Source: a virus (Duplodnaviria; Caudoviricetes). Taken from it: a stretch of DNA of 25,054 nucleotides. Positions 1,960-22,330 of the stretch are shown piece after piece. The position numbers and the translations under genes are program-made. The stretch spans positions 1 through 25,054 of the IMG/VR virus record IMGVR_UViG_3300020465_000091. One strand, 5' to 3'. The first letter of the stretch is position 1. Each line of letters opens with the position of its first letter. A model generated the notes under the pieces. It did no database searches, had not been told where the DNA came from, and worked only from the letters and a program-made list of their open reading frames with translations.

Positions 1960-1980
1960 ATTTCTTTTTTAGTTATTTAT
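1960..1980 (-). promoter_or_regulatory. T4-like late promoter plus A-rich leader
   Basis: ATAAATAACTAAAAAAGAAAT-ATG. TAAATA at 1974-1979 includes the upstream stop codon. Confidence 0.7.
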
Positions 1981-3911
1981 GGGTTGGAATCCCACAGAAC
2001 ATTATTATCCTTATCTTTTATTCTAACCCTTCCATTAGTACTACTAGCTCCCCATGTAATTTGTCCTGTAAGTTTTGCCCATACACCAACACCCTGTCCA
2101 GATGCACTAAATGCTATTTTGAATAAAGATCTTGTTGATCCTGCTCCATCTGGAGTGCTGTCAGCTGGGAATGTAACGGTACCAGCTCCCGGATTTAAAC
2201 CAATCTGGCTAGTGGTCATTACCTCACTATCATAATAGTGAGTACCATTCCTCCATGTATCTCCACTATTATTAGCACCAGCTTCTCTTCCAGCTACAGC
2301 TCTAATATATGTTACGTTCATACCATAACTAGATCCACCTTGCCCGTAAACAATATGAGATCCATTAAAAGTCCAACTAGCACTGTCAGTAATTTCAAAC
2401 ATAAAATGAGTACCTGTATAACCACTAGCATATGAAACCTGTAGTGCAATCATAGCAAAACCACCATATACCGAGCCCATTCTTATATCACCAGGCCCAT
2501 AGACATGTAAGAGTGATTTTGGATCTGTAACATGTATGCCAATTTTACCTGAATGATCAATTACCATCCTCTGATTTGAAGATGAACCACCACCTGTATA
2601 GAACTGCAATCCTTCATTGTCACCAGCAGCACCTCGATAATTAATCTTTGCTTGATCACCAGCACCAGTCTTCCAATTAATTGAAGCAATATCACCACCA
2701 GTAGATTGTCTGTATAATTGGAGTGCTGGATTATCATCAGTTGTTGCTTTTACAACAAGTTGAGCACCCGGATTGGAGTCATTTATACCAACTTTACCAT
2801 CTGATGTGATGCGAAGTCTTTCTGTTGGAGTATCTGTTGCACCTGTTGTATTTCTAGTATTGAATACTAATGCACCTTTCGTGTTTCCAGAATTATCACT
2901 TTCTGTATATCCCATTGAAGCAGGATAAACACTGGTACCAAAGGTTGTAACATATCCAAACCCAATCAGTCTATTAACATTTGTTCCATTCTCAGTATCA
3001 CCTAATGCAAGGAAAATACTATCATTACCTAATGAAGTAGATACAGCACGTTTTATTCTTACGGTTCCAGCAGAGTTGATGCGGAGTCTTTCTGATCCAC
3101 CAACAATAAATGCAGCATCATAACTAGCAGTTGTATTATTCTTCCAATAAGTATAGCCAGGCGAAGCACTAGTATCTACACCAAATATAAGTCCTTGACC
3201 ACTAGCAGTACTGTTCTGAAGATTTAGCATATCTCCAGATGTAGGTGTTGTAAATTTCGCTATTCCTCCATTTCCACTAGTTGAACTATAAATACGAAGT
3301 CTTTCACCACCACTATTAGTAAAACGAATAGAGCCACTTCCTGCTGTTCCTATTGTAAAATTACCGTTTGCACCTAATTGTGATTCAAAGAATGCTCTTT
3401 GTGCTCCTCCAGCATCACCTAGATATATACTTGCATAATTACTATTAGAATTATTACCAACAAACTGCATTCCAACATTACCTGATGCTTCACTAACAAC
3501 TAAGTTATTAGAATAAGAATTAGCTGGTGAAACTGAAGTGGCTCCTATAATCAATCTACCATTTGAGTCAATTATCATTCTATATGTTGTTCTTCCCAAA
3601 TCATAAAAAGCAAGACCAGGCCCAACACCACCATCTGCTTGCATTAACCATCTCTCTGCAGTATCTTTGACTTCTATTCCAGCACCAGTAGCATTAGTGC
3701 TCTGAAACTTACCATATACATTACCAGTTCCAGAAACATCGAGTTTTCTATCAGGAGAATTTGTTCCTACCCCCATGTCACCATCAGGTATTACTACATC
3801 AGAATTAAAAGTAGAAATGCCAGTTACAACAATGCCCCTATTTGGTGCCATTGAAACGTTAACATCACTAGCATCAGGACTTTGTAAATTGTGGGTTTTT
3901 AATGTTGACAT
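1977..3911 (-). CDS. Tail-fibre-like protein, 644 aa
   Basis: G/S/T/N-rich with repeated ERLRI(T/N)S.G.VGI modules and a distinct C-terminal domain that may bind a receptor. Confidence 0.75.
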   Translation of the reverse strand: MSTLKTHNLQSPDASDVNVSMAPNRGIVVTGISTFNSDVVIPDGDMGVGTNSPDRKLDVSGTGNVYGKFQSTNATGAGIEVKDTAERWLMQADGGVGPGLAFYDLGRTTYRMIIDSNGRLIIGATSVSPANSYSNNLVVSEASGNVGMQFVGNNSNSNYASIYLGDAGGAQRAFFESQLGANGNFTIGTAGSGSIRFTNSGGERLRIYSSTSGNGGIAKFTTPTSGDMLNLQNSTASGQGLIFGVDTSASPGYTYWKNNTTASYDAAFIVGGSERLRINSAGTVRIKRAVSTSLGNDSIFLALGDTENGTNVNRLIGFGYVTTFGTSVYPASMGYTESDNSGNTKGALVFNTRNTTGATDTPTERLRITSDGKVGINDSNPGAQLVVKATTDDNPALQLYRQSTGGDIASINWKTGAGDQAKINYRGAAGDNEGLQFYTGGGSSSNQRMVIDHSGKIGIHVTDPKSLLHVYGPGDIRMGSVYGGFAMIALQVSYASGYTGTHFMFEITDSASWTFNGSHIVYGQGGSSYGMNVTYIRAVAGREAGANNSGDTWRNGTHYYDSEVMTTSQIGLNPGAGTVTFPADSTPDGAGSTRSLFKIAFSASGQGVGVWAKLTGQITWGASSTNGRVRIKDKDNNVLWDSNP

Positions 3912-4318
3912 TATCTCCTCAGTGGAATATGCCTCATGGCATCTTGTACTTCTTGTGGTGTTGCATCAATAATTTTCATTGCATCAGACTTATTTTCATA
4001 AGGAAACTTACCTTCCTTAGCCTTTGCATACTTTTCACATCTTAAATCAAATAATAATTTATTGTAATTAGAATCACTACCATATTTAGTTTTCAAAAGT
4101 CCCTCTGCTTTTTCTGAAAATTGCCACATTGAACAATTGCATTTACCAGTTCCACAATCATCCACTTCAACAATTCCCATACCTTGTTTTTTTATATCTT
4201 CAAGATATGTCATATAATCAATATTACTTGAATCAGTAGGGATCCATGCATTATCAGATTTCCTTTTTATATAATCTAAATTACCTAATTCATCTTTAAC
4301 ACATTGATACATAAACAT
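3911..4318 (-). CDS. Small fibre-associated protein (possible assembly chaperone), 135 aa
   Basis: Starts 2 nt after the 4321..5748 stop and overlaps the next gene by TAATG. The N-terminal IKRKSDNAWIPTDSSNIDYMTYLE resembles small proteins that often follow phage fibre genes (from recall, not searched). Confidence 0.55.
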   Translation of the reverse strand: MFMYQCVKDELGNLDYIKRKSDNAWIPTDSSNIDYMTYLEDIKKQGMGIVEVDDCGTGKCNCSMWQFSEKAEGLLKTKYGSDSNYNKLLFDLRCEKYAKAKEGKFPYENKSDAMKIIDATPQEVQDAMRHIPLRR

Positions 4319-4320
4319 AA

Positions 4321-5748
4321 TTATAACTCCGCATTTGCTACAAATTTATATAAACTGGCCTGACTGCCACCCAAACCACTAAATGTAGCATAGAATCCAG
4401 ATGGAGATTGCCCTTGTGCAAGAAGACTACCACTACTAGTTTCAGTAATAGTTACGGTAGGTGTTGCTCTCATTTCAGTTGCAAAAATATGACTACCTCT
4501 CGAATAACCATCAGCACTACCATAACCAGAACTTAGGATTGAAGATCCAACCGTTTGATAATATCGTTGGCAACGTGCAAGTTCCTCTCCGTGACTACGC
4601 TGCTCGAATGGAGTGGCCACTGAACCAACTTCTAATTGAATATTTGAGATATCTAATGTCCATGAACTTGCACTATTGTTTGTTCCTTGTCCTAATGCTA
4701 TTTGGAAATAACTAGCTGCACCAAAAGTTTTACCAGAATGAGAAGGAATATCAAAGGTTAATGAATATTTTCTAAAAGTAGAATCATTTTGTAAATATGG
4801 AGTCGTTTGCTGTGCAACATCAACATCAGCACTTGAATCATAATGTATAGTTATCCATGCGGCTAAATTAGCATTTACATGACCTCTTGCCCAAAATGAT
4901 AAGGTAGCTTTTCCTTCTGGAATGGAGGCAGCATCTTCAATTCTTTGGAAAATTCCACAATAATCACTTGATGATGTAGACGCTATACGAGCATAATAAC
5001 GTGATCCATCAATTGGATTTGTATGAGTTTGTCTGGAGAAAGTCATACTTGCACCAGAAAGATTGTGATGCCATCTATCTGCTGCTACATAACCAGATGA
5101 ACTTGAACTTGTTGCTCTTTGCCAAATATGAAAATTTCCGTTGATTATTTTGTTGCGATGTGAGTATGGTGTTGTGCGTGTAAGATTTTCACCACTACCA
5201 CTAAATGATGTTGCAGTACAGATTCCTGTTACAACAGCTCCCGTGTTAGTGGTTTCTATTCTCTTCGTTCCATTAGAGTAGAGTGATACATCTCCATTAA
5301 TATTTGCATTAATGCAATAGTCACCTGTATCTTTATCACTATCTCTAAGTTGAAATGAACTATTAGAAACAAGCTTTAAACCACCTGTTCCAGATTCTTC
5401 AATAATACTATGGTTACCGTCATGAAACAGTTGAAGATCGGAACTAGCTCCGAAAGATAACTTTGCATTATCTCCAAACTCTAATTGATTATCCGACTTA
5501 TCCCATACGACATTGTATGATGCCCCAGCTAATGTAAGATCATCATTAAAAACTGATGTTGAAGATACATCTATACTTCCATTTATATCTAACTGTCCTG
5601 TTGTTGTAATCCCAGAAAAAACATTACCATTATTACCGAGTAATGCTGTACCACTTGTCGGCATAGTAAAAGTGAGATTACCAGCATCCGCAGCTGCTGC
5701 AATCTCAACGTATCCACTATTACTTCCAGTTAGACGTACTTTTGACAT
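4321..5748 (-). CDS. Tail-fibre-like protein with probable carbohydrate-binding-like C-terminal domain, 475 aa
   Basis: NKIINGNFHIWQR...IQLEVGSVATPFEQRSHGEELARCQRYYQ...EMRATPTVT motifs typical of phage fibre tips, plus an N-terminal FGDNAKLSFGASSDLQLFHDG module. Confidence 0.75.
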   Translation of the reverse strand: MSKVRLTGSNSGYVEIAAAADAGNLTFTMPTSGTALLGNNGNVFSGITTTGQLDINGSIDVSSTSVFNDDLTLAGASYNVVWDKSDNQLEFGDNAKLSFGASSDLQLFHDGNHSIIEESGTGGLKLVSNSSFQLRDSDKDTGDYCINANINGDVSLYSNGTKRIETTNTGAVVTGICTATSFSGSGENLTRTTPYSHRNKIINGNFHIWQRATSSSSSGYVAADRWHHNLSGASMTFSRQTHTNPIDGSRYYARIASTSSSDYCGIFQRIEDAASIPEGKATLSFWARGHVNANLAAWITIHYDSSADVDVAQQTTPYLQNDSTFRKYSLTFDIPSHSGKTFGAASYFQIALGQGTNNSASSWTLDISNIQLEVGSVATPFEQRSHGEELARCQRYYQTVGSSILSSGYGSADGYSRGSHIFATEMRATPTVTITETSSGSLLAQGQSPSGFYATFSGLGGSQASLYKFVANAEL

Positions 5749-5768
5749 ATTACTTTTTAGTTATTTAT
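5749..5768 (-). promoter_or_regulatory. T4-like late promoter plus A-rich leader
   Basis: ATAAATAACTAAAAAGTAAT-ATG. TAAATA at 5762-5767 includes the upstream stop codon. Confidence 0.7.
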
Positions 5769-8215
5769 GAACCCTCAAGGGCAGCAACTCTTGCTTCAAG
5801 TGATTCTCTCTTTGCAGTCTCCTCCTGTAAAGCAGCAGTAAGAAGTGGAACTAATTTAGCATAATCAACTGATTGATAAATTGGATCATCTTTTTTCCAT
5901 TGTCCACCATTTTGAGTTTCATCCTCTGCTTGTACAGCATCTTTTGTTCCAGAAACTACACCAATATCAGGTAAAACTGCCTGTGCTTCATGTGCAAAGA
6001 AACCTTGACCTAATTTATCATCATTCTTCCAAGTAAATTGATATGGTTTAAGTGCTTTTATTGTTGTTAATGCATTTGATATTACTGTCTCATCCTTTTT
6101 CAATCTATAATCAGAAGTTGATCCATATGTCATAGTTCCATTACTATTTGTTATCGACACATTACCACCACCAGTATGGGTGAATTTCATTCTCTGAGCA
6201 CCACCAACCTGCCATGAATTCATAGTACTATCAGTAGGATAATACTCAACTTGACCCCGCGACCATATACGCATCTTTTTGCCTGTAGTATTACCAGACC
6301 AATTAGCAGTACCAAGATCTAAATACCCACCATATTCCCAACCATTACCAGATTGTCTACTTCCTTTAACATAAGCCCACATTCTTTCTTGACCAGCAGA
6401 TCCAGTTCCACTTCCTCCAAGTCCAAGAACTCCACCATCACCTGCTGCCCATCCAGTATTAGAACCAACATACAGATTACATCTTTGAGCTGTATGCACA
6501 TTCGCATCAGCAGCATCTGGATTAACCCTTGCTGAATGGAATGCTACAGGTTGGTTAGTAGTTGGACTAGACGTTCCTACACGATCACCTACTGCAAGTT
6601 TACCATCTCCATCAATACGCATACTCTCTTCAGGAGCATTATTACCAGACTTATTGTAGAATAAAGTTTTTCCTGTATATTGACATCTAACTGCAGCACT
6701 ACCATAATTATTGTAATACCTAGTGAAAGTACCATTCTGTCCCATGTATACATTGGAACCCATCATTATATCAGTACCACCACTATCATCAGTAGTTGAT
6801 ATTGCAGCGTCTGCTAAACCAGCTCCATAAGCAGTCTGGAAACAGATAGGTGGCATTGTCTGCGTAGATCTTTTTGCTAAGAAAGATAGTTGAGCAGTAG
6901 GAACAGAAGTGTTTATACCAACCAAACCACCCGATGTGATGCGAACTTTTTCTGTTGCACTATTATTTCCAGTTGCAAATGCTAGGAATCCTTTACCAGC
7001 AGAATTATTCTCTACACCAAATCTTATTTCGCTTCTATTATACTCGTTACTTCTATTATACTTACCACGAATTGTTCCATATGTTCCATCAGTTGCACCA
7101 ACATACATCTCAACAAGGTTTGCAGCACTGCCAGCCTCATTACCTACACCAATATTAAGAGCACCAGCTGATGTGATGCGAAGTCTTTCTGTTGAAGTAG
7201 TTGTTCCACCATTAGTATAGAAAGTTAAATAACCGGGCGTATCATTAGAACCAATACCTGTATCAACATAAGTTCTTATTTCAGCAGCTGAATGATTTAA
7301 ATCAGTTCCATCATGAGGATACCATCCTATTACTCCAATATTATCACCTGCTTGACATGCAGCACCAGCAGAAGATCTTGATTTAGCTAGTGCTATGTAA
7401 CCTGCTCCATTATCATTTGATGTTCTTATAAATGTTGCTAATTCTGAACTATTTTTTTGAACCTGAAGAATTGGCTCACCACCAGCAGATGCTCTAGAAG
7501 CATTATGTCCAAGTAATAATCTTCCACTTGAGTCGATGCGAAGTCTTTCAGTCATCGAACCACCAGAAGGTCGAGTACCAATTGTTAATGCTCCTTCGTT
7601 ATTTGAATTATTAACATTAATAAATTTAATTTCGCTTGTTCCTTGTCCTCCTGCATCTGCACCTTGAATCATTGTATATGAATTCGCAGTTGCATCATTA
7701 TTTTGAAGAGATATCCATGTTCCAAGAGTACTACCAGTTCCTTCTAACTTAATAGCTCCATCTGATGATGTATCTTTTATATGGAGTTTTACTCCTGAAG
7801 CTGGATCAACTCCTATACCAACATCACCACTTGAGTTGATGCGAAATCTTTCACTACCACCAGTTTCGACTGAAAATGTATCAGCAGCAGGGAATCTTAT
7901 TGCAGTATTAGTGTCTCCAGTATGAATTATCTTATCTGGAATTGTGAGGTCACCACCCACAGTTAAGTTTGTTGGTTCAATGGTTCCTACAAACTTTGTT
8001 GCTGTAATTATACCCGTAACAACTACATTACTATTTGCATCAAAAGTTATATTAGAAGCTGTTGTATTAATTCCTATCGTTGTGATACCAGAAGTCTTTC
8101 CATCAATATGAACAAGAACATCTCCAGATGAATTAGTTATTTTTACTTTCTCATCAATACTAGCACTCGCTGGTACTGATTGTGCCTCAATATTGTTTAT
8201 CCGAAGAGTACTCAT
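5765..8215 (-). CDS. Tail fibre with C-terminal intramolecular chaperone (Peptidase_S74-like), 816 aa
   Basis: Four ERLRI-type modules. C-terminus has TSDYRLKK...LKPYQFTWK...GFFAHEAQ...VDYAKLVPLLTAALQE followed by a coiled coil, the S74 autocleavage signature. Confidence 0.85.
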   Translation of the reverse strand: MSTLRINNIEAQSVPASASIDEKVKITNSSGDVLVHIDGKTSGITTIGINTTASNITFDANSNVVVTGIITATKFVGTIEPTNLTVGGDLTIPDKIIHTGDTNTAIRFPAADTFSVETGGSERFRINSSGDVGIGVDPASGVKLHIKDTSSDGAIKLEGTGSTLGTWISLQNNDATANSYTMIQGADAGGQGTSEIKFINVNNSNNEGALTIGTRPSGGSMTERLRIDSSGRLLLGHNASRASAGGEPILQVQKNSSELATFIRTSNDNGAGYIALAKSRSSAGAACQAGDNIGVIGWYPHDGTDLNHSAAEIRTYVDTGIGSNDTPGYLTFYTNGGTTTSTERLRITSAGALNIGVGNEAGSAANLVEMYVGATDGTYGTIRGKYNRSNEYNRSEIRFGVENNSAGKGFLAFATGNNSATEKVRITSGGLVGINTSVPTAQLSFLAKRSTQTMPPICFQTAYGAGLADAAISTTDDSGGTDIMMGSNVYMGQNGTFTRYYNNYGSAAVRCQYTGKTLFYNKSGNNAPEESMRIDGDGKLAVGDRVGTSSPTTNQPVAFHSARVNPDAADANVHTAQRCNLYVGSNTGWAAGDGGVLGLGGSGTGSAGQERMWAYVKGSRQSGNGWEYGGYLDLGTANWSGNTTGKKMRIWSRGQVEYYPTDSTMNSWQVGGAQRMKFTHTGGGNVSITNSNGTMTYGSTSDYRLKKDETVISNALTTIKALKPYQFTWKNDDKLGQGFFAHEAQAVLPDIGVVSGTKDAVQAEDETQNGGQWKKDDPIYQSVDYAKLVPLLTAALQEETAKRESLEARVAALEGS

Positions 8216-8241
8216 TTTATGACGCTTTTTTTAATATTTAG
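8216..8241 (-). promoter_or_regulatory. T4-like late promoter plus A-rich leader
   Basis: CTAAATATTAAAAAAAGCGTCATAAA-ATG, with TAAATA at 8235-8240. Confidence 0.65.
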
Positions 8242-9080
8242 ACTACAACATAGTTTCCATCAACAGTTAAAACACCATTAACTGTGACTGGCCCTGCCAT
8301 TAATCCATTGAAACTTGTGCTTATATAATGATTACCATTAAGTTCATTATCATATATTGTCATGCCATTGCTTATATACATTCCTTGGAAAGAATTACCA
8401 GCACCAACCATATCAGTTGTAAATCCAACTGTATTGACACCTACATTCGATGCAGTATGAATACCAGCTGCAGGAGATGATGATGTAACAAACTTACCTC
8501 CACCCGCAACTTCTAAATCAATTGTTCCATCAGAATCTTGATACGTAACAGTGATATTAGTTTCAGTATTACCTGAGAACATTGCACCAACAATATCTTG
8601 TATTTCTTCATTTGTCTTACCACCCAAATTAACTGTGGCAATACCTGAAACAGAAGTTGCTGTTAATCCTGATTGAACAAAATTAATAAAGGTAACTCCA
8701 GTTCCAATGGTTGTACCACCAGACTGAATACCTACACTAGATAATCTATCCTTTGCACTCTCTGCTAATTTTGCAAGTGTAACTGAAGCATCTGCTGGAA
8801 CAGATACACCAATAGAAGTTCCTAAAACAATTATAAAACAATCATCACCACTAGCTGGTGCAGAAGCAAACTCAATACTTGATTGATCTATTGTAAAAGC
8901 AGTCTCTGCTTCTTGAATAATACCTGAAACTGACACCATAAGTGCCATTGATGATCCGGGGAAAAAATCGGTGCCACCTGATTTAAGGTCAAAAGATACC
9001 TTACTACCATTAAACTGTGAAGAAATATCATCCAGTTTAAGATAATTACCTTGACTTAAATCGCGACCTATGTATGGCAT
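8238..9080 (-). CDS. Virion structural / fibre-adaptor-like protein, 280 aa
   Basis: MPYIG...LDDISSQFNGSKVSFDL...VSVSGIIQ, VGIQSGGT.IG.G, and C-terminal GLMAGPVTVNGVLTVDGNYVVV. Paralogous to 424..1959. Confidence 0.7.
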   Translation of the reverse strand: MPYIGRDLSQGNYLKLDDISSQFNGSKVSFDLKSGGTDFFPGSSMALMVSVSGIIQEAETAFTIDQSSIEFASAPASGDDCFIIVLGTSIGVSVPADASVTLAKLAESAKDRLSSVGIQSGGTTIGTGVTFINFVQSGLTATSVSGIATVNLGGKTNEEIQDIVGAMFSGNTETNITVTYQDSDGTIDLEVAGGGKFVTSSSPAAGIHTASNVGVNTVGFTTDMVGAGNSFQGMYISNGMTIYDNELNGNHYISTSFNGLMAGPVTVNGVLTVDGNYVVV

Positions 9081-9101
9081 ATACTTTTTTTAGTTATTTA
9101 G
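9081..9101 (-). promoter_or_regulatory. T4-like late promoter plus A-rich leader
   Basis: CTAAATAACTAAAAAAAGTAT-ATG, with TAAATA at 9095-9100. Confidence 0.7.
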
Positions 9102-11449
9102 TTGCCTTCAAGATTAGTTACTCGTGATCTAAGTGCAACATTCTCAGATTTAAGTTGATTCATCGTAGTCTCAGCATCTTCAATCTTAGTAATTAGTTCT
9201 TTAATTGCAGCAGTCAGCAATGGAGTAATTCTTCCATAATCAGCAGCTTGTGCATCAATAGAACCATCCTCATTTACTGCATCTTTTACACCATCAACTG
9301 CATCAGGACATACTGCATCCAATTCATGTGCGATCCATCCATCTACAGTTCCTAGTGCTGGATTATTTTTCCAAGTATGCCTAACAGGATTTAATTGTTT
9401 AACACGAGTTATACCATCTGATATTGAAACAACATTTTCTTTAAGTCTATAGTCAGAACTTGTGTAATAAGTTACATTACTTGAATTATCTTTAATTCTT
9501 CCAGTATTAGTATTGCTATTTGACCAGTTAGCAAAATATATATGATCTCCTGTGCTTCCTCCAGCACTAGATATTATCACATAGTTGGCAGTAGTACCTT
9601 GAACATTTAATCCATTAGCACTACTACTAGATGCATTTATATTGAAGTAACCTCCAGCAGGCCCTTGAGATGTTGTACCATAATAGAATTTTCCATCACT
9701 TCCGATGCGAAATCTTTCTGTCGCTGATGTACGAAATCTCATACTATTATCAGAATGATCATATGCAATTAATCCAGCACGAATTCCACTATTATCATCA
9801 TCACTACCTGAGTTGTCAGCAAATTGTATTTCTCCTGATTGATTTCCGTTAGAATTTCCTCTGATAATTAAAGTTGGTCTATTTGTTCCAGTTATCTGAA
9901 GTGCCTGACCACTAACGGCACTATTATTTAAACCAGTAGTCCCAAGAATTAAATTCCCACTTGAGTCGAGGCGCATTCTTTCTTGAACTCCAGTAGCAGT
10001 ATCTGGTCTTGTGTAAAATGTAAGATGTCCATCATCTTTATTACTAGCATCTGCACCAGCAAGTGCAATAATTCCAGCAACTTTGGTATTATTCCAGTAA
10101 GCAAATATTTCTCCTAGTCCACCACCAGCACTTGTGGTTGTTCCTCTTAATGCAATTCTACCACCACTTGTTCCACCGTCAATATGAATAGTTCCAGCAG
10201 TTGTATCAAGAGTTGTTTGTGAAGCACCAGTATATAATCTTCCACCTGAGTCAATGCGCATTCTTTCTCCAATACTACTACCATTATGAGTATAGAATGT
10301 AATTGGAGCACTACTATTAGGTGCTTTAATAAAGAACTCAGTACCTGAAACTCCTAATATACCTTTCTGTCCTCCTGCTTCATCATATAAATTAACTTCT
10401 ACACCATTACTATCAGAACCACTAACAAATAATCTATTGGTATTTTCTGCTGCTTTAAGCATCAATAAACCACCAGATACATCTCCTTGAGTGGTCAGCA
10501 TTGCATTGAAAATATTTGATCCACCGATTGATGTTGCAGCACTATTATTAGCAATTTTTATTCTTTGATTATTATTGGTTGATAATGATAAAGTTCCATT
10601 GGACACCACATTAACGTGTCCATTACCAGAAGAATCATGTCCTATATCAATACCAGTATTACTATTCCTATCACCAGCAGTAACTCTTACATAAGCACTT
10701 GTTGTATTAGCAGCATCTGGCCAAACATGAAGTAATTGTTGTGGAGATACATTACCTATAGCAACATTACCACTTGAGTTGATAAACATTCTTGTGGAAG
10801 TATTTGTAGCAAAATACAATCCATCAACATTATGTCCATAACTTATGAATCCTTTATATTCACCATCGCCAGAGGTTGCATCAGAAAAATAAATATTACC
10901 TGCACCACTTGTTCCAGATCGAAGTGTTATTCCAGTATCACCAGATGTTGCGATTGTTAAATCATCACCATTTGCATGTCCTTCAGTAGTGGTTCCTAGA
11001 AGCAATCGACCACTTGAGTCGATGCGAAGTCTTTCTGTTCCTGCTGTATAGAGACGCATATTACCCGTCTCTCTATTATTCAATAGAGTTTCAACACCAC
11101 TTTGATGTATGGTAAATCCATCACCAGAACCAGTTCCAGTTGTACTGTTTGTTATATGAACATAACAATCAGCATTAGCTCTATGAATATGAAGAGGACT
11201 TCTTGCTGCTGCTGTGGTTCCTATTACAACATCACCTGCTGATGTGATGCGAAGTCTTTCTGCATTATTAGTTCCTAATGTTATCGTATTAGATGATGGA
11301 CTGAATATTGATGATCCTGTTCCTACAGTAAAACCTGAGTTATCTACAAATGTTGTGATACCCGAAAACATCGGGCCGGAATCTGTAAAAGTTACAGTAC
11401 TTAAACCAGCTCGACTCTTTAAACTATTTGTACGTATCTCAGATGTCAT
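9098..11449 (-). CDS. Tail fibre with C-terminal intramolecular chaperone (Peptidase_S74-like), 783 aa
   Basis: At least six ERLRI/ERMRI-type modules. C-terminus has SSDYRLKEN...LNPVRHTWK...GWIAHEL...DYGRITPLLTAAIKEL followed by a coiled coil. Confidence 0.85.
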   Translation of the reverse strand: MTSEIRTNSLKSRAGLSTVTFTDSGPMFSGITTFVDNSGFTVGTGSSIFSPSSNTITLGTNNAERLRITSAGDVVIGTTAAARSPLHIHRANADCYVHITNSTTGTGSGDGFTIHQSGVETLLNNRETGNMRLYTAGTERLRIDSSGRLLLGTTTEGHANGDDLTIATSGDTGITLRSGTSGAGNIYFSDATSGDGEYKGFISYGHNVDGLYFATNTSTRMFINSSGNVAIGNVSPQQLLHVWPDAANTTSAYVRVTAGDRNSNTGIDIGHDSSGNGHVNVVSNGTLSLSTNNNQRIKIANNSAATSIGGSNIFNAMLTTQGDVSGGLLMLKAAENTNRLFVSGSDSNGVEVNLYDEAGGQKGILGVSGTEFFIKAPNSSAPITFYTHNGSSIGERMRIDSGGRLYTGASQTTLDTTAGTIHIDGGTSGGRIALRGTTTSAGGGLGEIFAYWNNTKVAGIIALAGADASNKDDGHLTFYTRPDTATGVQERMRLDSSGNLILGTTGLNNSAVSGQALQITGTNRPTLIIRGNSNGNQSGEIQFADNSGSDDDNSGIRAGLIAYDHSDNSMRFRTSATERFRIGSDGKFYYGTTSQGPAGGYFNINASSSSANGLNVQGTTANYVIISSAGGSTGDHIYFANWSNSNTNTGRIKDNSSNVTYYTSSDYRLKENVVSISDGITRVKQLNPVRHTWKNNPALGTVDGWIAHELDAVCPDAVDGVKDAVNEDGSIDAQAADYGRITPLLTAAIKELITKIEDAETTMNQLKSENVALRSRVTNLEGN

Positions 11450-11470
11450 ATTACTTTTTTAGTTATTTAT
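11450..11470 (-). promoter_or_regulatory. T4-like late promoter plus A-rich leader
   Basis: ATAAATAACTAAAAAAGTAAT-ATG, with TAAATA at 11464-11469. Confidence 0.7.
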
Positions 11471-11500
11471 GAAGACTGTAGAATGAATCTTTCATATCAT

Positions 11501-13297
11501 TTATGCTACAAAACCTTGAATATCAAAGGTTACAAAAATATCAGATGTGTATCCACTATTATTTGTAACTGTAACACCTTTTGAAGCTCCTGCAACTGTA
11601 AAACTATTTCCACCACTTGCTCCACCTTGAGTATTAAATGGAGTATTACTTACACCAGAATTAGCTGTTGCTCTCATCCCAATGAGATACATTTGTGTTG
11701 TCATAAATGTTGCATTAGAATCTCTACAACTAGTAATAATAACTGTACCTCCACCATAAGTGCTTGATGTTTGGAAAGTATAAGAAGCTCCATTTGCTAC
11801 TTCTTGATATAAAGTTTCTTTAACCTGAGTGTAATTAGCAGGAGTCTGACCCTTACGAGCCAAATGATGTCTTCCTACAGTTATAAATTTCTCGTCATTA
11901 GTAATACGCACTTTTTCTGTTGGTGTATCAGCATCTGCTGTAAAGAATCTAAGATCGATATGATTATTTCCAGAATTATTTACAGCCTGAATAGATCCAT
12001 ATCTAGTAGCAGATGTAGTAGGTGAAAATCTCAGTTCTTTTGTTGTGTTTTGAGCACTTGTATTACTTTTGAGGTGAACTACACCACTTGAGTCGATGCG
12101 AAGTCTTGTCCCTCCAGCATTAGTCTGAAAATCTAATGCATTATCAGTTTGTTGATATGCAATGCGTCCAATATCTGCATCACTTGAATCTCCAAAGTAA
12201 ATATTGGCAGATGAACCACTACCTGAAATTATTGATATTCCTCTATCACTACTTCCCTCAATTACTAAATCATCTCCTGCTGTATTTGCAGATGTACCAA
12301 TAGCACCTATTCTTGCACTTGTACCTAAATGTAAATTTCTCCATCTTGCTCCACTTGCTCCCAAATCTCTTACATTATCAGCATCAACTTTTGCATCGAC
12401 ATTAAATTGCACTTTACTAGTTGTGATGCGAAGTCTCTCTACATTATTAAGTGAAACTGCAAGAGTATCAGCTACTGGTCTGAATATTGCTGCTCCTGTT
12501 TGTGGTGTACTTATATTTCCACTAAAATCAATAAAAGCGGAAGACATGGTAAGTCTTCCATTACTCATTACTTTTATTCCATCATGTTGTATCTTAAATC
12601 TTTCTGTAGATCCATCTGAGTCATACCATTTAAAATTACCTTGATAATCAATTAGATGTCTTAATTTTGCATTAGCCCCTGATCCCCCCTGATCACCAGA
12701 AACATAAAAATTGAATCCTGAATAATTACCACCTGTTCTACATGCTGATATATGTACAATACCATCACCACTATTTCTTTCAATGATACAACCATCCACA
12801 TTTTTAGAAGTATTAGCACTTCCAAAAAGACCTGATCCAGACACATTAATACCACCAGTTACTGTTGCTCCCGAATTAGTTGTTTTTATTTTTTCATTTC
12901 CATAATGATAAAGTAAAGACTCACCAGTTGAACCATCTGCTCTAAAGTAGAGTGCTGTGCCACCACTTCCATCATCAGTCTTAATATCTACATCTTTATC
13001 ATTAGCATAGTTTGTTACTTGTATATTACCAGTAGTTTCAAAAATTTGTAGATTGGTTCCCGTATGTTTAATTGAACCATCATCATCAGTACCAAATGAT
13101 GCTTTCTGATTATCAGGTATGAATACTCCTTCTCTTGCTGTTATTATACCTACTGAATCTATATTCGTTACATCTTCATATGTTAATGTACCACCAACAG
13201 ACACATTTCCAGCAAAAGTAGCGATACCAGATATATTTAAATTATTTAACTCTGCACTGAGAGATTTTCTTATGTCTGTTAACTTAGAAAGTGCCAT
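11501..13297 (-). CDS. Tail-fibre-like protein, 598 aa
   Basis: GGTLTYEDVTNIDSVGIITAR head, ERLRI modules, and a GDDLVIEGSSDRGISI...NIYFGD module shared with 9098..11449. Confidence 0.75.
   Translation of the reverse strand: MALSKLTDIRKSLSAELNNLNISGIATFAGNVSVGGTLTYEDVTNIDSVGIITAREGVFIPDNQKASFGTDDDGSIKHTGTNLQIFETTGNIQVTNYANDKDVDIKTDDGSGGTALYFRADGSTGESLLYHYGNEKIKTTNSGATVTGGINVSGSGLFGSANTSKNVDGCIIERNSGDGIVHISACRTGGNYSGFNFYVSGDQGGSGANAKLRHLIDYQGNFKWYDSDGSTERFKIQHDGIKVMSNGRLTMSSAFIDFSGNISTPQTGAAIFRPVADTLAVSLNNVERLRITTSKVQFNVDAKVDADNVRDLGASGARWRNLHLGTSARIGAIGTSANTAGDDLVIEGSSDRGISIISGSGSSANIYFGDSSDADIGRIAYQQTDNALDFQTNAGGTRLRIDSSGVVHLKSNTSAQNTTKELRFSPTTSATRYGSIQAVNNSGNNHIDLRFFTADADTPTEKVRITNDEKFITVGRHHLARKGQTPANYTQVKETLYQEVANGASYTFQTSSTYGGGTVIITSCRDSNATFMTTQMYLIGMRATANSGVSNTPFNTQGGASGGNSFTVAGASKGVTVTNNSGYTSDIFVTFDIQGFVA
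13131..13198. repeat. 68-bp exact direct repeat, copy 2
   Basis: Identical to 151-218. Confidence 0.95.
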
Positions 13298-13318
13298 TAT
13301 ATCTTTTTAACTATTTAT
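13298..13318 (-). promoter_or_regulatory. T4-like late promoter plus A-rich leader
   Basis: ATAAATAGTTAAAAAGATATA-ATG. TAAATA at 13312-13317 includes the upstream stop codon. Confidence 0.7.
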
Positions 13319-13569
13319 CGAACTTCAAAATCTAATTTACGAATTTTACGTTGTCTTCTTTTTTCCTGCCACTGCATATCTTGTTCAGTAAATCCAATCT
13401 TTTCTGAAAATCTAGGAGTGTTCACCATCACAACTTTTGACATGTCACGAGCTGATATACTATTACCTCTCACAGTTGTCATATTTTCACAACCACAAGA
13501 GTATGTTTTACCAGCACAACCTATCACCTCTTTACCACAAGAACGACATCTTATTCTAATGTTCTCCAT
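13315..13569 (-). CDS. Hypothetical Cys-rich (zinc-ribbon-like) protein, 84 aa
   Basis: CRSC...C...CGC motif and a basic C-terminus, in the same orientation as its neighbours. Confidence 0.7.
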   Translation of the reverse strand: MENIRIRCRSCGKEVIGCAGKTYSCGCENMTTVRGNSISARDMSKVVMVNTPRFSEKIGFTEQDMQWQEKRRQRKIRKLDFEVR

Positions 13570-15466: not shown

Positions 15467-15488
15467 TTTACATATGGTAACGTTTAAA

Positions 15489-16004
15489 ATGAAAAAATTT
15501 TTACCTTTTGCGATGCTATTGATGGGTGTTCCATTTGCTACAGCTCACCCAAGTGCCCGTGCAGACATTACACATCGTATGTCTTCTAGCACTCAGTTGG
15601 TTACAAACGCTGCAGCTACACAAGTTCAAAGAATCGGTAGTACGTATAGTGCCTCTGGATCTGGTGTAACTATGGATGTTGGTGGTGGTAACTCTGCAGA
15701 CTTAAAAGTTGGTGGAATCGGATCACTTTCTTCAGGTGTTGGTCAAGGATCAATTGGTACAGCGACCCAGACAACTGCTGGTGGAGCATTCAGTTTTAGC
15801 CAGTCATTCATTTCTGGTGATGTAATTGAAACTACTGCACCTGCAGTTGGAGCAGTTAGTGATTACTCTATTCAAACTTCAACTGGTGTTGGTAGTGGCA
15901 CTGGTACAGGTACGGTAACTTCAGCACATACTGCAACTGCAGTTGGTGGAGGAACAGGTACTTCTAGTACAGCACAATTTGTAACCGAGCTCACAATCAA
16001 CTAG
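15489..16004 (+). CDS. Exported Gly/Ser/Thr-rich hypothetical protein A
   Basis: MKKFLPFAMLLMG...ARA signal peptide (alternative start 15474). The mature part ADITH...FVTELTIN is beta-rich. Confidence 0.8.
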   Translation: MKKFLPFAMLLMGVPFATAHPSARADITHRMSSSTQLVTNAAATQVQRIGSTYSASGSGVTMDVGGGNSADLKVGGIGSLSSGVGQGSIGTATQTTAGGAFSFSQSFISGDVIETTAPAVGAVSDYSIQTSTGVGSGTGTGTVTSAHTATAVGGGTGTSSTAQFVTELTIN

Positions 16005-16008
16005 AGCG

Positions 16009-16440
16009 ATGAAAAGGTTTATCCCTTTACTTTTATTACTAGGTTCAGGATCTGCTGTTAGAGCAGTTCCTGTGGTGCCAAATTTTACTCAGGGCTCAAT
16101 GACCAGCCACACTGAGACAACTAGCACAGTTACTGAGACAATTAATAGTATGGATTATGCCACAGGCTGGCAGTATACAGTAACAGGCACTGGTGTTGAA
16201 ACAAATGCTCCTCTCTCACCAGCAGGAACATCACAACATACAATTACAATAGACGGAGTGACTTCGACATGGAATGGTCTAGACATAGACAATCGACCAC
16301 AATTTACACAAACCACTGCGGGAGCAAGTTTTCAATTTTCCGAAAGTTACGCTGGGCCAGGCCTCCAAAATCAAACCCTGATACAGAGGACAACCACAAT
16401 AGAAAGCGTAACAGATACAACAAGCACCTTTACGCAATAA
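16009..16440 (+). CDS. Exported Thr-rich hypothetical protein B, 143 aa
   Basis: MKRFIPLLLLLGSGSAVRA signal peptide. Shares TQTTAG..F.FS.S with protein A. Confidence 0.8.
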   Translation: MKRFIPLLLLLGSGSAVRAVPVVPNFTQGSMTSHTETTSTVTETINSMDYATGWQYTVTGTGVETNAPLSPAGTSQHTITIDGVTSTWNGLDIDNRPQFTQTTAGASFQFSESYAGPGLQNQTLIQRTTTIESVTDTTSTFTQ

Positions 16441-17177
16441 CCGCAACTGCTGTAAGTGTCATAACATGCACACCAGTTATGGCAGCAGATGTGGGTGGTG
16501 TTAGTGCCACTGCCAATCCAATAGCAAATTCGTCTGGCTCGGTAACAAACCAAGCTATTCAGGTTTTACAAGGCCCATATATAACTAATACTTATGGTGG
16601 AGGCATTCAATGTCAAGGTGCGACTATGAATGTCACGCCATACGTCACTGGAGCTGGATCATTCAAAAGACCTTTTGAACGGTATTATGATGATCCAGTT
16701 TTTGATGTCTCCGACTTAGATGATGATGGACAAATTGATAATCCCGGAGAAATACTTTACTATATTCCAACAAGAACTAATCAAACAGAAAACTATAATT
16801 TGTCATTAGGTTTATCCGCTACATGGTCACGACCATTAGATAAACAATTACAAGAACAATGTAAAGAGGCAGCAGCTGCAAATATAGATCTAATGCAACA
16901 AACAGTTGCCAATAAAAGATTAGATTTTGAAATCGCACGTCTTAAGAATTGTGGTGAACTTAAAAAGGCTGGTATAATGTTCCATCCCAAATCACCATAT
17001 GCTTCCATATGTGCTGATGTAATGTTAGTTCAACCTGCTGGTGTAGTAACTCCTCATATGCATAACCTTACACCTAATAAAGTTAATGAAGAAATCAAAG
17101 TAGACTCAAATAAAGTTGAAGTAAATGGTGAGGCATCTAATCTAGGAGTATTCTCTATAGGAAAACCCATAGACTAA
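16269..17177 (+). CDS. Exported or membrane-associated hypothetical protein C (true start uncertain, probably near 16400-16440)
   Basis: Signal-like KHLYAITATAVSVITCTPVMA followed by ADVGGVSATANP..., a DLDDDGQID acidic loop, YNLSLGLSATWSRPLD, and a helical Cys-containing tail. ATG 16269 gives a 172-nt overlap with gene B. Confidence 0.75.
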   Translation: MEWSRHRQSTTIYTNHCGSKFSIFRKLRWARPPKSNPDTEDNHNRKRNRYNKHLYAITATAVSVITCTPVMAADVGGVSATANPIANSSGSVTNQAIQVLQGPYITNTYGGGIQCQGATMNVTPYVTGAGSFKRPFERYYDDPVFDVSDLDDDGQIDNPGEILYYIPTRTNQTENYNLSLGLSATWSRPLDKQLQEQCKEAAAANIDLMQQTVANKRLDFEIARLKNCGELKKAGIMFHPKSPYASICADVMLVQPAGVVTPHMHNLTPNKVNEEIKVDSNKVEVNGEASNLGVFSIGKPID

Positions 17178-18074
17178 TTATTTTTTATTTTTAAAATACT
17201 TCTTCTTTAGTTTTTCCGCTTCTTTCTCAGCCTTCATCTTTTTGGCATGGTTCTTAGCAAAAGGAATCTCAAGTAAACCTTTCTTTTTCCGATATTCATT
17301 TGTTTTCAATTGAGCTTGAGTAGGTTTATAAGGAGTCTTACCAAGTGCTTTATTAACCTTACCTATTACCTGTTTAATTGCAGGTTTAAAAATCTTTAGT
17401 AGTAAATCTGCTAGAGGTTTTGCTAATAGTGCAGATGTGCCAGCCACTGCTGCTATGGAAGCTGTTGTAGTAGCAACTGCTGCAGAAGGTAGGTACGCTT
17501 CTACTACACCAATATCTTCATATAATTCTACACATACCCACGTTCCTTGTTGAGTTTTTTGTAATTCATGACCAACTACTTTTTCTTTTTCACTAGGGCC
17601 TACTGCACCAATACGTAATGATTGTGGGCCGGGACAATCAGGTTTTTCATTACCTGCTTTGGGTATAGGTGGTGTATCTGGTGTAGTAAGATCTGGATCC
17701 TCTGGTGGAGCAACAGGTGGTGCCTCCTGTTGTCTCGTAATTATCAATTGATCTGGTTCATAGTTCATAGAATCATATGAAGGATAACCAGAATCACAAA
17801 AAGTCATTACCTCTTCAGGATCATTCTCTACTAGATCCTTATCTATCGGTAAATTATTCCTATGTCTTTTATTATCTTTATGTGCTTTTACACAACCGGG
17901 GAGATCTACAATAGGATTACCAATATTGACTATGACAGGAGGAAGTAAATAATCAACATTAGGTTGTGTGGTCATCCACTGAGGAACATACACATTTGGA
18001 ATATTAGTATCATAGATATCAATAATATTCGTGGTATTGTTATTAATACCATCAATTTTTTTAATGGGTTCCAT
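17178..18074 (-). CDS. Hypothetical Pro-rich membrane-anchored protein, 298 aa
   Basis: Four Cys, a Pro-rich linker, a hydrophobic AAVATTTASIAAVAGTSALLA segment and a Lys-rich C-terminus. Its stop abuts the stop of gene C. Confidence 0.75.
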   Translation of the reverse strand: MEPIKKIDGINNNTTNIIDIYDTNIPNVYVPQWMTTQPNVDYLLPPVIVNIGNPIVDLPGCVKAHKDNKRHRNNLPIDKDLVENDPEEVMTFCDSGYPSYDSMNYEPDQLIITRQQEAPPVAPPEDPDLTTPDTPPIPKAGNEKPDCPGPQSLRIGAVGPSEKEKVVGHELQKTQQGTWVCVELYEDIGVVEAYLPSAAVATTTASIAAVAGTSALLAKPLADLLLKIFKPAIKQVIGKVNKALGKTPYKPTQAQLKTNEYRKKKGLLEIPFAKNHAKKMKAEKEAEKLKKKYFKNKK

Positions 18075-18392
18075 TCATTTTGCGATGTTATTCCATTTTA
18101 AAAAGTCAAAAGTAGTTATATAACTTTCATGCTTATGATCTGCCTCTGCAAATGTAGGAACCGTAGCCATATTTGTATAGATTCCAAATACAGTCACTAA
18201 TGATGCTATTACAGCACCAGCACCCCAAACCCACTTCTCTAATTTACGAAGTCTATCATTAAGTTCTTCTTGATCCTTATCCTTTATACGATCAAGTTGC
18301 TCTTCTAAATCCTTAACTTTTGTTTCCAAGACTGCCATACGACTGTCTTGTGCGGATTGTTTTTCATAATATTCAGGGTTAGTAGTGGTCAT
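18075..18392 (-). CDS. Coiled-coil plus single-TM protein (XhlA/holin-like architecture), 105 aa
   Basis: RMAVLETKVKDLEEQL...RLRKLEKWVWGAGAVIASLVTVFGIY. Confidence 0.6.
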   Translation of the reverse strand: MTTTNPEYYEKQSAQDSRMAVLETKVKDLEEQLDRIKDKDQEELNDRLRKLEKWVWGAGAVIASLVTVFGIYTNMATVPTFAEADHKHESYITTFDFLKWNNIAK

Positions 18393-18643
18393 TTAGGAAC
18401 CTCCTTACGGTAATCTTGCGGTGAATCTATTCTAACAACACCACCTGTTGATTTAGGTAACATCTCTGCTAAAGCATTACGAACTTCTTCTCTTACTATG
18501 AGTTGAATTTCTGATTGTTTTGCTTTAACTCTTTTTTCAGGCCCACCAGTTGCTTTATCGATGGCATAATTACCACCAAAAATACTACCGCCACCTATGA
18601 CGGCAACTGCTGTTCCTGTACTAGCAACTTTTTGTATATCCAT
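18389..18643 (-). CDS. Hypothetical protein, 84 aa
   Basis: N-terminal hydrophobic Gly-rich segment, with ATGA and TAATG overlaps with its neighbours. Confidence 0.7.
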   Translation of the reverse strand: MDIQKVASTGTAVAVIGGGSIFGGNYAIDKATGGPEKRVKAKQSEIQLIVREEVRNALAEMLPKSTGGVVRIDSPQDYRKEVPK

Positions 18644-21725: not shown

Positions 21726-21903
21726 AATCACTTCCATCTCCAATATAAGTCAGTGAGAAAACATCATGGTCTTCACCATCATATTCAATCCACTCCTCAA
21801 ACTCTTTATAAATTGCATTTTTATCAGCAACAGGTTCTACTACATTAAGTCTACTGATAGACCAATCACGAACACTATTCAGAGTTTGATTCAAAGTTTC
21901 CAT
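21715..21903 (-). CDS. Hypothetical acidic protein, about 62 aa
   Basis: Start reassigned to METLNQ at 21903, which leaves short overlaps with both neighbours. Confidence 0.65.
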   Translation of the reverse strand: METLNQTLNSVRDWSISRLNVVEPVADKNAIYKEFEEWIEYDGEDHDVFSLTYIGDGSDYDK

Positions 21904-22330
21904 AATCTTTACGCATATAGCGACCAAGTATGTTGCTATTATAATATTTCGGTGTCCCGTCGTCAAGAGCCTCTGTTAACACATTATGAAGAAACAACTG
22001 TTTAGTCTCTTCATAATTTACTTTACCTAATGTTGTATGTAATGATATTATCTCTCTTCTGAAAGCACCTCTACCAAGGCACTTAATATCCTGTTTAAGT
22101 TCCGCAGAGCTTCCAAAGTATCGTTTCCAGTCTGACTCCGAAGTAATCTTTCTTTTACCTCCTTTCGGTTTTCGCTTCTGCACGAAATATTTTCTTCCGA
22201 TATATTCCTTTCCATTTGTGGTGTTGGTGATGCGATAGACGAACCCATAGTGGTCACCGATATCATCAGAAGTAAAGGGAGTGCCCTCATAGATCCAAGG
22301 ATTTTCATAATCAATATTCTTATCAGTCAT
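21875..22330 (-). CDS. GIY-YIG superfamily nuclease-like protein, 151 aa
   Basis: YGFVYRITNTTNGKEYIGRK (GIY-YIG variant), Y(F)GSS, FRREI, a conserved-type Glu (NYEE) and a terminal YYN. Confidence 0.75.
   Translation of the reverse strand: MTDKNIDYENPWIYEGTPFTSDDIGDHYGFVYRITNTTNGKEYIGRKYFVQKRKPKGGKRKITSESDWKRYFGSSAELKQDIKCLGRGAFRREIISLHTTLGKVNYEETKQLFLHNVLTEALDDGTPKYYNSNILGRYMRKDYGNFESNSE

Follow-up and report, generated by a model that had tools for sequence, protein, structure and literature searches.

Codon-locked 24-nucleotide joints between putatively interchangeable modules in the tail-fibre genes of marine cyanophages

We analysed a 25,054-nucleotide (nt) viral contig (IMG/VR record IMGVR_UViG_3300020465_000091; hereafter the window), which we read as part of a T4-like marine cyanomyophage, and found that its four fibre and fibre-like genes are punctuated by a short in-frame element, the joint, with the peptide ERLRI or a close variant at its core and a GxVGIG element behind it. 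Three features of the joint were observed directly: its codons are locked over about 24 nt, sharing of modules between loci breaks at it, and its synonymous spelling sorts by genome. In our judgement these joints probably lie between interchangeable shaft modules, and their spelling would be frozen by short-homology recombination with concerted evolution, no dedicated site-specific recombinase being involved.

The earlier note on this window had pointed to 13 copies of the motif in one orientation and phase across four fibre genes, and this count was confirmed together with the codons: all 13 copies are on the minus strand and in frame, with 2 in the gene at 1977-3911, 4 in that at 5765-8215, 5 in that at 9098-11449 and 2 in that at 11501-13297, and the second Arg is encoded by CGC in 13/13 and the following codon is ATC in 11/13. 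Those copies had been selected by their DNA, and a second set was defined by the peptide alone ([ETK][RKS][LFMV]R[IL]). Among the 17 joints obtained in this way, 13 carried CGC, four carried CGT and none carried AGA or AGG. The enrichment over background was very strong, as CGC made up 4/131 and AGA 91/131 of the Arg codons outside joints in the seven structural genes (Fisher p=3e-12), and ATC was used for Ile at 11 of 16 joints against 24/252 in the background (p=1e-7). When the 13 copies were compared in all 78 pairs, the core was 87% identical, and the 60-nt flanks averaged 34% (maxima 65% and 58%), which bears out the claim that the flanking DNA is divergent. Two 24-nt words said to be identical between different genes were exact at all six places, starting at 2801, 7168 and 11239 for one class and at 7524, 11010 and 12084 for the other. 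A few further degenerate joints (TRMFI, YRMII, QRMVI and ERFKI) were seen, and no long module was found duplicated within the window.

Beyond the window, the exact 15-mer was present in about 310 viral stretches. A scan in which the codons of the second Arg and the Ile were left free gave 124 distinct matches, of which 58 read CGT-ATA, 51 CGC-ATC, 12 another CGY combination, 2 CGA and 1 AGA, with AGA making up 67% of the background Arg codons in the open reading frames (ORFs) of those same matches. Among 235 copies of ERLRITS or EKLRITS, 174 were written purely in one of two spellings, 89 in spelling A (CGC ATC ACA TCA) and 85 in spelling B (CGT ATA ACT TCT). The first three synonymous sites were linked to one another with an r2 of 0.82-0.91; for the fourth site the value was 0.44-0.56, and linkage to the Gly at +8 was at most 0.04. 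The strong codon bias covered codons -1 to +6, i.e., about 24 nt, and stopped there even though Gly+8 was 96% conserved, the GxVGIG element behind it being only mildly biased; positions +4 and +6 tolerated change, and +5 and +8 to +10 hardly did so. As a control we used another motif of the same loci, TYEDVxNxDSxGxxTA, in which 41 copies revealed no comparable rare-codon lock, with three positions leaning to A-ending codons. The idea that the constraint acts on the DNA as well as on the protein was therefore upheld, since rare codons are locked and synonymous sites are not free within a lineage.

Rare codons could also act as a translational pause or an RNA signal that paces the folding of modules, and it is true that CGC and ATC are uncommon codons here and that, at this Arg, CGN is preferred over AGA in all GC classes. 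Codon rarity, however, gives no reason to expect four synonymous sites to be passed on together as linked blocks, and spelling B uses common codons (ACT, TCT). The folding energy of the joint zone (-7.8 and -7.3) was no stronger than that of mid-module controls (-7.5), and an RNA hairpin at the joint was rejected on this ground. Such a signal would moreover leave the breakpoints described below unexplained, and we regard it as very improbable.

The spelling was found to sort by genome. Within-contig pairs agreed in 331 of 423 cases (78%), against a permutation mean of 50.5% and maximum of 60%, in a test limited to the 82 contig groups that no scan but the codon-free one had recovered. Contig groups with at least two copies and a value for GC content at third codon positions (GC3) comprised 54 of spelling A, 30 of B and 28 mixed ones, and GC3 was lower in A genomes (0.152 vs 0.189, p=1e-10); the GC-richer spelling thus resides in the AT-richer genomes, the opposite of what mutation bias predicts. 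The motif recurs up to 20 times per genome, in several genes. When A and B genomes sharing a flank were paired, each genome kept its own spelling in 16 of 17 pairs, which are not independent of one another. Among isolates, the Prochlorococcus phage P-TIM68 carries A, and S-SM2, S-TIM5/54/61/66 and several other Synechococcus phages match B; with one Prochlorococcus isolate set against about 12 Synechococcus phages, and with an 18-nt A-like match in S-B43, a host association of the two spellings is suggestive only.

Fully codon-free scans (132 and 128 matches) showed the peptide to have a much wider distribution than the A and B spellings, an exact seven-codon A or B spelling being found in 10/33 matches of the lowest GC3 bin and in 7/30 of the next. 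Other viruses write it in their own ways, such as GAG CGG ATG CGN ATC GAC AGC (AGC in 51/68 vs 20% in the background) or GAA CGC CTG CGC ATC ACC TCG, and GC-rich phages write the second half as CGC ATC AC. TCG, close to A. Repeated spellings of their own were also seen in an ORF at 9046 of Sf-CH8 (GAG CGG CTG CGA ATC GAC AGC) and one at 3618 of S-CBP1 (CGC CTS CGC ATC ACA TCG GAC GGG), suggesting further exchange pools. Weak matches of a type-A 30-mer in phages of Gordonia, Arthrobacter and Lactococcus were treated as chance.

To place the joint in the protein, residues 105-365 of the 816-amino-acid (aa) fibre (gene 5765-8215), which hold two modules, were modelled as a monomer from a 35-sequence alignment (predicted local distance difference test, pLDDT, 74). 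The model matched the L-shaped fibre of phage T5 (Foldseek E 8e-7 to 4UW7; Z 11.5, root-mean-square deviation 4.0 over 205 aligned residues to 4UW8) and the Bdellovibrio MAT fibre Bd1334 (Z 10.6), so that this part of the fibre is predicted to resemble the T5 L-fibre beta-helix. A phmmer search against PDB sequences gave 0 matches at E<=1, and a single-sequence AlphaFold model of the whole 816-aa fibre (pLDDT 36) was not used. In the model, ERLRI forms a beta-strand (118-123) from which a turn leads into another strand (129-131), and the segment behind the joint resembles the capping-loop motif of the VG-x-x-x-x-P..L type described for S74 fibres in the available part of PMC10769870. The Peptidase_S74 domain was above cut-off in the genes 5765-8215 and 9098-11449 and was not found in 1977-3911 and 11501-13297. 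From S74 and the fold, a trimeric triple-beta-helix assembly and its location on the virion can be predicted.

Such a structural element raises another explanation, in which recombination is not raised at the joint at all: joins would arise anywhere, only those at the strand-turn-strand boundary would fold, and the spelling would have hitch-hiked as a relic from an ancestral module rich in GC. The strand-turn-strand element with a capping-loop-type segment behind it (as far as PMC10769870 describes that motif) would fit this, as would the likeness of the second half in GC-rich phages to A and the fact that breakpoints reach GxVGIG zones with only mild codon bias. A relic, however, should have decayed under AT-rich bias, as did the codons of Gly+8 and the TYEDV motif, but the synonymous sites of the core are fixed between flanks that are at random identity; and the resident-genome spelling in the non-independent A-versus-B pairs would need ongoing conversion. 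We consider this explanation doubtful.

Exchange at the joints was examined in cultured phages by comparing S-TIM66 with S-TIM5, which are about 99% identical outside swapped blocks and differ by 14 module-scale breakpoints. Six of these fell within -3..+45 of an ERxR copy (at +14, +22, +23, +24, +33 and +44) and two at GxVGIG elements without ERLRI, so that joint zones, which make up 6-8% of the fibre ORFs, held 8/14 breakpoints. The junctions carried shared words of 7-10 nt, and in several of them one partner was without the ERLRI core.

In metagenomic and viral contigs, alignments of at least 100 nt and at least 85% identity were made among 260 motif-bearing ORFs (340 before contained and overlapping ones were removed), and of their 446 ends, 87 fell in the zone -15..+30 around a joint, where 26.8 would be expected. 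We then compared 630 joint copies for a 60-nt flank shared at >=85%: 93 pairs shared the upstream flank only, 38 the downstream flank only, 8 both, and 8 were intermediate, which gives 131 break pairs against 8 that keep both flanks. Counted by family, breaks were seen in 40/46 upstream and 34/42 downstream families, and both flanks were retained in 7. When the test was slid along the modules, the broken fraction of upstream-sharing pairs was 0.94-0.97 across joints and 0.16-0.46 at points 84-200 nt downstream. Between -3 and about +15, the sequence gradually lost its identity to the upstream partner and gained identity to the downstream one. The window's own modules behaved likewise: modules 223-343, 343-422 and 422-533 of the 816-aa fibre recur from joint to joint at 70-90% identity, at other positions and in other proteins, and 57 of 112 of their alignment ends lay within -3..+16 aa of a joint, a zone of about 15-20% of the sequence. 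At 6952 and 10267 the flanks matched other loci at 97% identity, and the modules into which those loci run on are different ones. When viral contigs were scanned with a protein seed, a single locus was returned, as expected because the gene is mosaic.

That breakpoints in relatives are not random and cluster at the motif agrees with the in-frame module swapping put forward in the earlier note, and the reading of the joints as real module-swap points is well supported. The note had allowed for swapping among paralogues as well as co-infecting phages; the exchange looks mostly to be between genomes, only 7 of the 131 break pairs being in one contig group.

Breakpoints of this kind might also be produced by mis-assembly of metagenomes at a short repeat, and many contigs of one sample do end or branch at joints, with most of the pairs derived from IMG/VR contigs. 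This explanation is, however, largely refuted by the joint-bounded swaps of the cultured S-TIM isolates, and the codon lock was likewise seen in the isolates P-TIM68, S-SM2 and S-TIM5. In addition, several joints of the window were spanned by contigs of other, independent seawater runs with 0-4 differences per piece, and the window is therefore no assembly chimera at the spanned joints. We find mis-assembly scarcely credible as a general cause.

The earlier note had left open a recombination site or a microhomology hotspot, and had proposed that a tyrosine or serine recombinase be sought outside the window. In complete motif-bearing genomes (the window's own full genome not among them), the integrase family PF00589 was found in 0/10, a search that does not cover very divergent or host enzymes, and the resolvase and serine recombinase families PF00239 and PF07508 were each found in 0/5, with annealase families (RecT, ERF, Rad52-like) outside the search. 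Reverse transcriptase (PF00078) was found in 0/5 of these genomes, and no long near-identical repeat pair was found in the window's fibre tips, so that the marks of a diversity-generating retroelement were missing. RecA/UvsX (PF00154) was present in 7/10. In one genome (G002, C1:145984-146780) the RecA/UvsX match came in two pieces in separate frames (profile positions 7-92 and 133-259), which may be a split gene, an insertion or an assembly error.

In-frame crossover words inside host-recognition protein genes are used by the Gin/Cin/Min invertases, the Rci shufflon and Cre-lox. Unlike in such site-specific systems, the cyanophage copies are all direct, with no inverted cassettes, no dyad and no recombinase gene in the complete genomes searched. 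No inverted words longer than 5 nt were found in the A or B consensus (longest 4-5 nt), and the crossover point is not fixed, since crossovers are scattered over about 45 nt and some isolate breakpoints are at GxVGIG zones without the core. The core of spelling B presumably resembles one arm of loxP, but this likeness was rejected, as no second arm was found, nor PF00589 in the complete genomes searched. A host chromosomal site was also rejected, as the 21-nt A/B pattern gave 0 matches in the prokaryote genome collection. The microhomology branch of the earlier proposal fits, and the site branch does not, given the lack of a dyad, the lineage-variable spelling, the spread of crossovers and the negative recombinase searches in the complete genomes.

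There remains the explanation that exchange is promoted by a sequence-specific protein bound to GAAARANTTCG, be it a recombinase that has escaped recognition, a nickase or a host factor, with A and B as specificity variants. It would account for the sharp 24-nt edge of the codon lock, for the tolerance of +4 and +6 next to the rigidity of +5 and +8 to +10, for the 11-nt first half common to A and B and also across Kyanoviridae and Aurunvirus (S-SM2, S-TIM5), and for the mapping of most exchanges in metagenomic pairs to -3..+15. Against it, neither consensus has an inverted arm, the enzyme families above and the 21-nt pattern were not found in the collections searched, only 1 of the 14 S-TIM66/S-TIM5 breakpoints ends in the core with several partners lacking ERLRI, and other lineages have unrelated first halves, e.g., GAG CGG ATG and GAA CGC CTG. 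We hold this explanation to be rather unlikely. In a bolder form, to which we would give a similarly small chance, there would be an ocean-wide library of fibre modules on a standard 24-nt DNA connector in at least two cyanomyophage families, in which a sequence-specific phage or host factor reads the unvarying first half, and compatibility codes in the second half (A or B) keep the Prochlorococcus-phage and Synechococcus-phage pools apart; if true, the connector would be a programmed, exon-like shuffling system for host range, independent of recombinase family.

Homology-driven exchange with concerted evolution is the reading that we prefer, and several points weigh against it. The shared 11-nt half, together with a preference for CGN at the second Arg in every GC3 bin, is also explicable by a DNA-binding factor. 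PF00154 is absent from the Aurunvirus isolates S-TIM5, S-TIM54 and S-TIM66, which carry spelling B and shuffle modules, and UvsX is therefore not the common enzyme. Mosaicism is not confined to joints, 6/14 breakpoints of S-TIM66/S-TIM5 being elsewhere; 0.54 of anchors more than 200 nt from any joint were also broken, and downstream-sharing pairs were broken in 0.69-0.80 of cases at 60-132 nt upstream. One upstream family has 35 members, so that the pairs are not independent, many compared loci were recovered using the motif's own DNA, and BLAST alignment ends are attracted to conserved motifs. The evidence for recombination is wholly comparative, and no within-genome deletion junction between two joints with sides >30 nt was found in the contigs of 8 runs. 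Contig junctions between two motif copies with sides of 18-35 nt came from other motif-sharing phages and were not counted as rearrangements.

Spread crossovers, arbitrary lineage spellings and conversion to the resident type together fit homology-driven exchange with concerted evolution, and the following course may be envisaged. During co-infection, a general strand-exchange or annealing activity (possibly phage UvsX where present, else host RecA or some annealase) would pair identities of 7-25 nt in the ERLRITSxGxVGIG zone, and only joins at the strand-turn-strand element would yield a foldable in-frame fibre. Copies in the majority spelling would recombine and be converted most, so that an arbitrary spelling would become fixed in each exchange pool: A in phages of low GC3, which are probably Prochlorococcus phages, and B in Synechococcus phages. 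Diversity of fibre length and receptor binding would be the result.

The 17 peptide-defined joints of the window, all on the minus strand, are distributed as follows. The 644-aa fibre gene at 1977..3911 (minus strand; phrog_18345 tail fibre, E 1e-19) has joints at aa 203 (3291..3305, ERLRI with CGT ATT, outside the count of the earlier note), aa 274 (3078..3092, ERLRI, CTC CGC ATC) and aa 364 (2801..2824, a T-class 24-mer of spelling A with core 2808-2822). At the last of these (2785-2823), dozens of contigs with unrelated flanks end in single seawater runs, and the summed depth was 48-578 there and about 4-37 in the adjacent bins; within the ocean virome, the joint together with GxVGI is a word present in many copies. 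The 816-aa gene at 5765..8215 (minus strand; PHROG tail-fibre match, C-terminal Peptidase_S74 chaperone) has CGC joints at aa 122 (7838..7852, ERFRI), 223 (7524..7549, a D-class 24-mer plus core 7535-7549), 343 (7168..7191, T-class, core 7175-7189) and 422 (6938..6952, EKVRI, CGC ATC), and degenerate CGT joints at aa 530 (6614..6628, ESMRI, CGT ATT) and 646 (6266..6280, KKMRI, CGT ATA).

In the 783-aa gene at 9098..11449 (minus strand; PHROG tail-fibre match, C-terminal Peptidase_S74), joints are at aa 64 (11239..11262, T-class, core 11246-11260), 139 (11010..11035, D-class plus core 11021-11035), 395 (10253..10267, ERMRI, CGC ATT; it is the upstream flank here that is 97% identical to a locus continuing into a different module), 490 (9968..9982, ERMRL, CGC CTC) and 578 (9704..9718, ERFRI), with a degenerate joint at aa 219. 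The contig bin 9444-9677 was uncovered in one comparison and was given no evidential weight. The 598-aa fibre-like gene at 11501..13297 (minus strand), for which no PHROG or Pfam match was found, has joints at aa 287 (12425..12439, ERLRI, GAG AGA CTT CGC ATC) and 397 (12084..12109, D-class plus core TRLRI at 12095-12109), both with CGC, and at aa 461 (11903..11917, EKVRI, CGT ATT). The distal long-tail-fibre PHROG profile gave weak matches only, over the C-terminal chaperone region.

The contig also carries nrdA/nrdB-like ORFs (recognised from their translations), a transaldolase, a cyanophage outer membrane protein (OMP)-like protein and a minus-strand structural-gene cluster; its top tblastn records are marine cyanophages, and near-identical DNA is present in marine metagenomes from several studies. 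A SegE-type GIY-YIG endonuclease at 21875-22330, directly 3' of nrdB, is likely an ordinary homing endonuclease without relation to the joints. Six plus-strand ORFs (one DUF6322) lie at 15474-18643 amid mostly minus-strand genes. An 82-nt repeat at 151-232, 929-1010 and 13131-13212 (94% and 76% identity) encodes the TYEDVxNxDSxGxxTA segment in three genes; very high summed contig depth was seen at 12986-13400, with loose contig ends at 13131, and the segment is a widely shared fibre segment. A conserved intergenic word, TAAATAACTAAAAAAG, followed by a start codon, is found at 1953-1981, 9074-9102 and 11443-11471 (similar near 5750-5765) and bridges the stop codon of one gene to the next fibre gene; it could be a gene-level swap point, and we take it to resemble a T4-type late promoter. 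In RN05-S, a motif-bearing S74 fibre gene (9836-11284) directly follows the gene of the major capsid protein and is distant from the tail genes, and some motif-bearing fibres may decorate the head.

Recombination at conserved motifs in T-even distal tail-fibre and gp38 adhesin genes was reportedly described by Tetart et al. in 1998. Crossovers within small conserved motifs of the gp38 adhesins were reported later (Trojet et al. 2011, PMC3157838), and the cyanophage joint is like them in that short conserved in-frame motifs stand between variable segments of a host-recognition fibre, and exchange takes place inside or close to them in the absence of extended homology; the available part of that article names no dedicated recombinase. 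Two marks of the T-even case, a motif separating variable segments and breakpoints concentrated in or near it, are present here, judged by sequence comparison. Unlike the T-even motifs, the cyanophage joint is multi-copy across genes and bounds whole shaft modules of 65-160 aa that move between positions and phage families, and it is locked in rare codons with linked, genome-sorted spellings, a codon-level lock being absent from the accessible portion of PMC3157838. Because the peptide differs, it is probably an analogue and not a homologue of the gp37 His-box and gp38 glycine-rich motifs.

Conserved DNA motifs around receptor-binding domains of tailspikes were proposed as recombination hotspots (Pas et al. 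2023, PMC10408124), and conserved DNA or peptide hotspots were proposed at boundaries of Klebsiella receptor-binding proteins (preprint 10.64898/2026.05.12.724579). As far as the available parts of these sources go, they share with our case DNA conserved above its surroundings in or beside receptor-binding protein genes and across genera, but such motifs number one or two per gene, measure 20-95 nt at 63-81% identity and lie at the boundary of the anchor or at the gene end, whereas the cyanophage joint is internal, multi-copy and 87% identical over 15 nt, with breakpoint enrichment measured against controls. In the T4-type phages RB49 and phi1, repeat-mediated shuffling of PeSL cassettes was demonstrated with mini-circles (Arbiol et al. 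2010, PMC2839356); they resemble the joint in having repeated short conserved crossover sites and modular shuffling probably via the general phage recombination system, and differ, from what is accessible of that article, in being intergenic promoter plus stem-loop units of about 100 bp that flank whole genes, the joint copies all being coding, in frame, about 24 nt long and unstructured. The two window genes with a C-terminal Peptidase_S74 share this domain, the fold match and mosaic architecture with S74 triple-beta-helix fibres (T5 L-shaped fibre 4UW7/4UW8; Bdellovibrio MAT fibres, Caulton et al. 2024, PMC10769870), for which the available part of that paper mentions no nucleotide-level joint. 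Complex amino-acid repeats were described in cyanophage fibres, with no DNA-level claim in the accessible part of the article (Sullivan et al. 2005, PMC1079782), and a description of the joint motif was not found in the literature searched, which did not extend to supplements and subscription papers.

In its working the joint resembles the conserved-motif shuffling of T-even phages, and it does not pass the tests for a site-specific system. New are its many copies, the exchange on the scale of whole modules, and synonymous spellings that are linked and sorted by genome. As the principle was already known, the finding extends current understanding and does not overturn it. With two natural synonymous alleles, the 24-nt joint can be recoded without a change of protein, which makes directly testable the Tetart/Krisch model, in which conserved motifs owe their preservation as DNA to their use in recombination. 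Fibre genes decide which cyanobacteria these abundant phages infect, and the joint spelling may serve as a marker of the phages that exchange fibre modules with one another.

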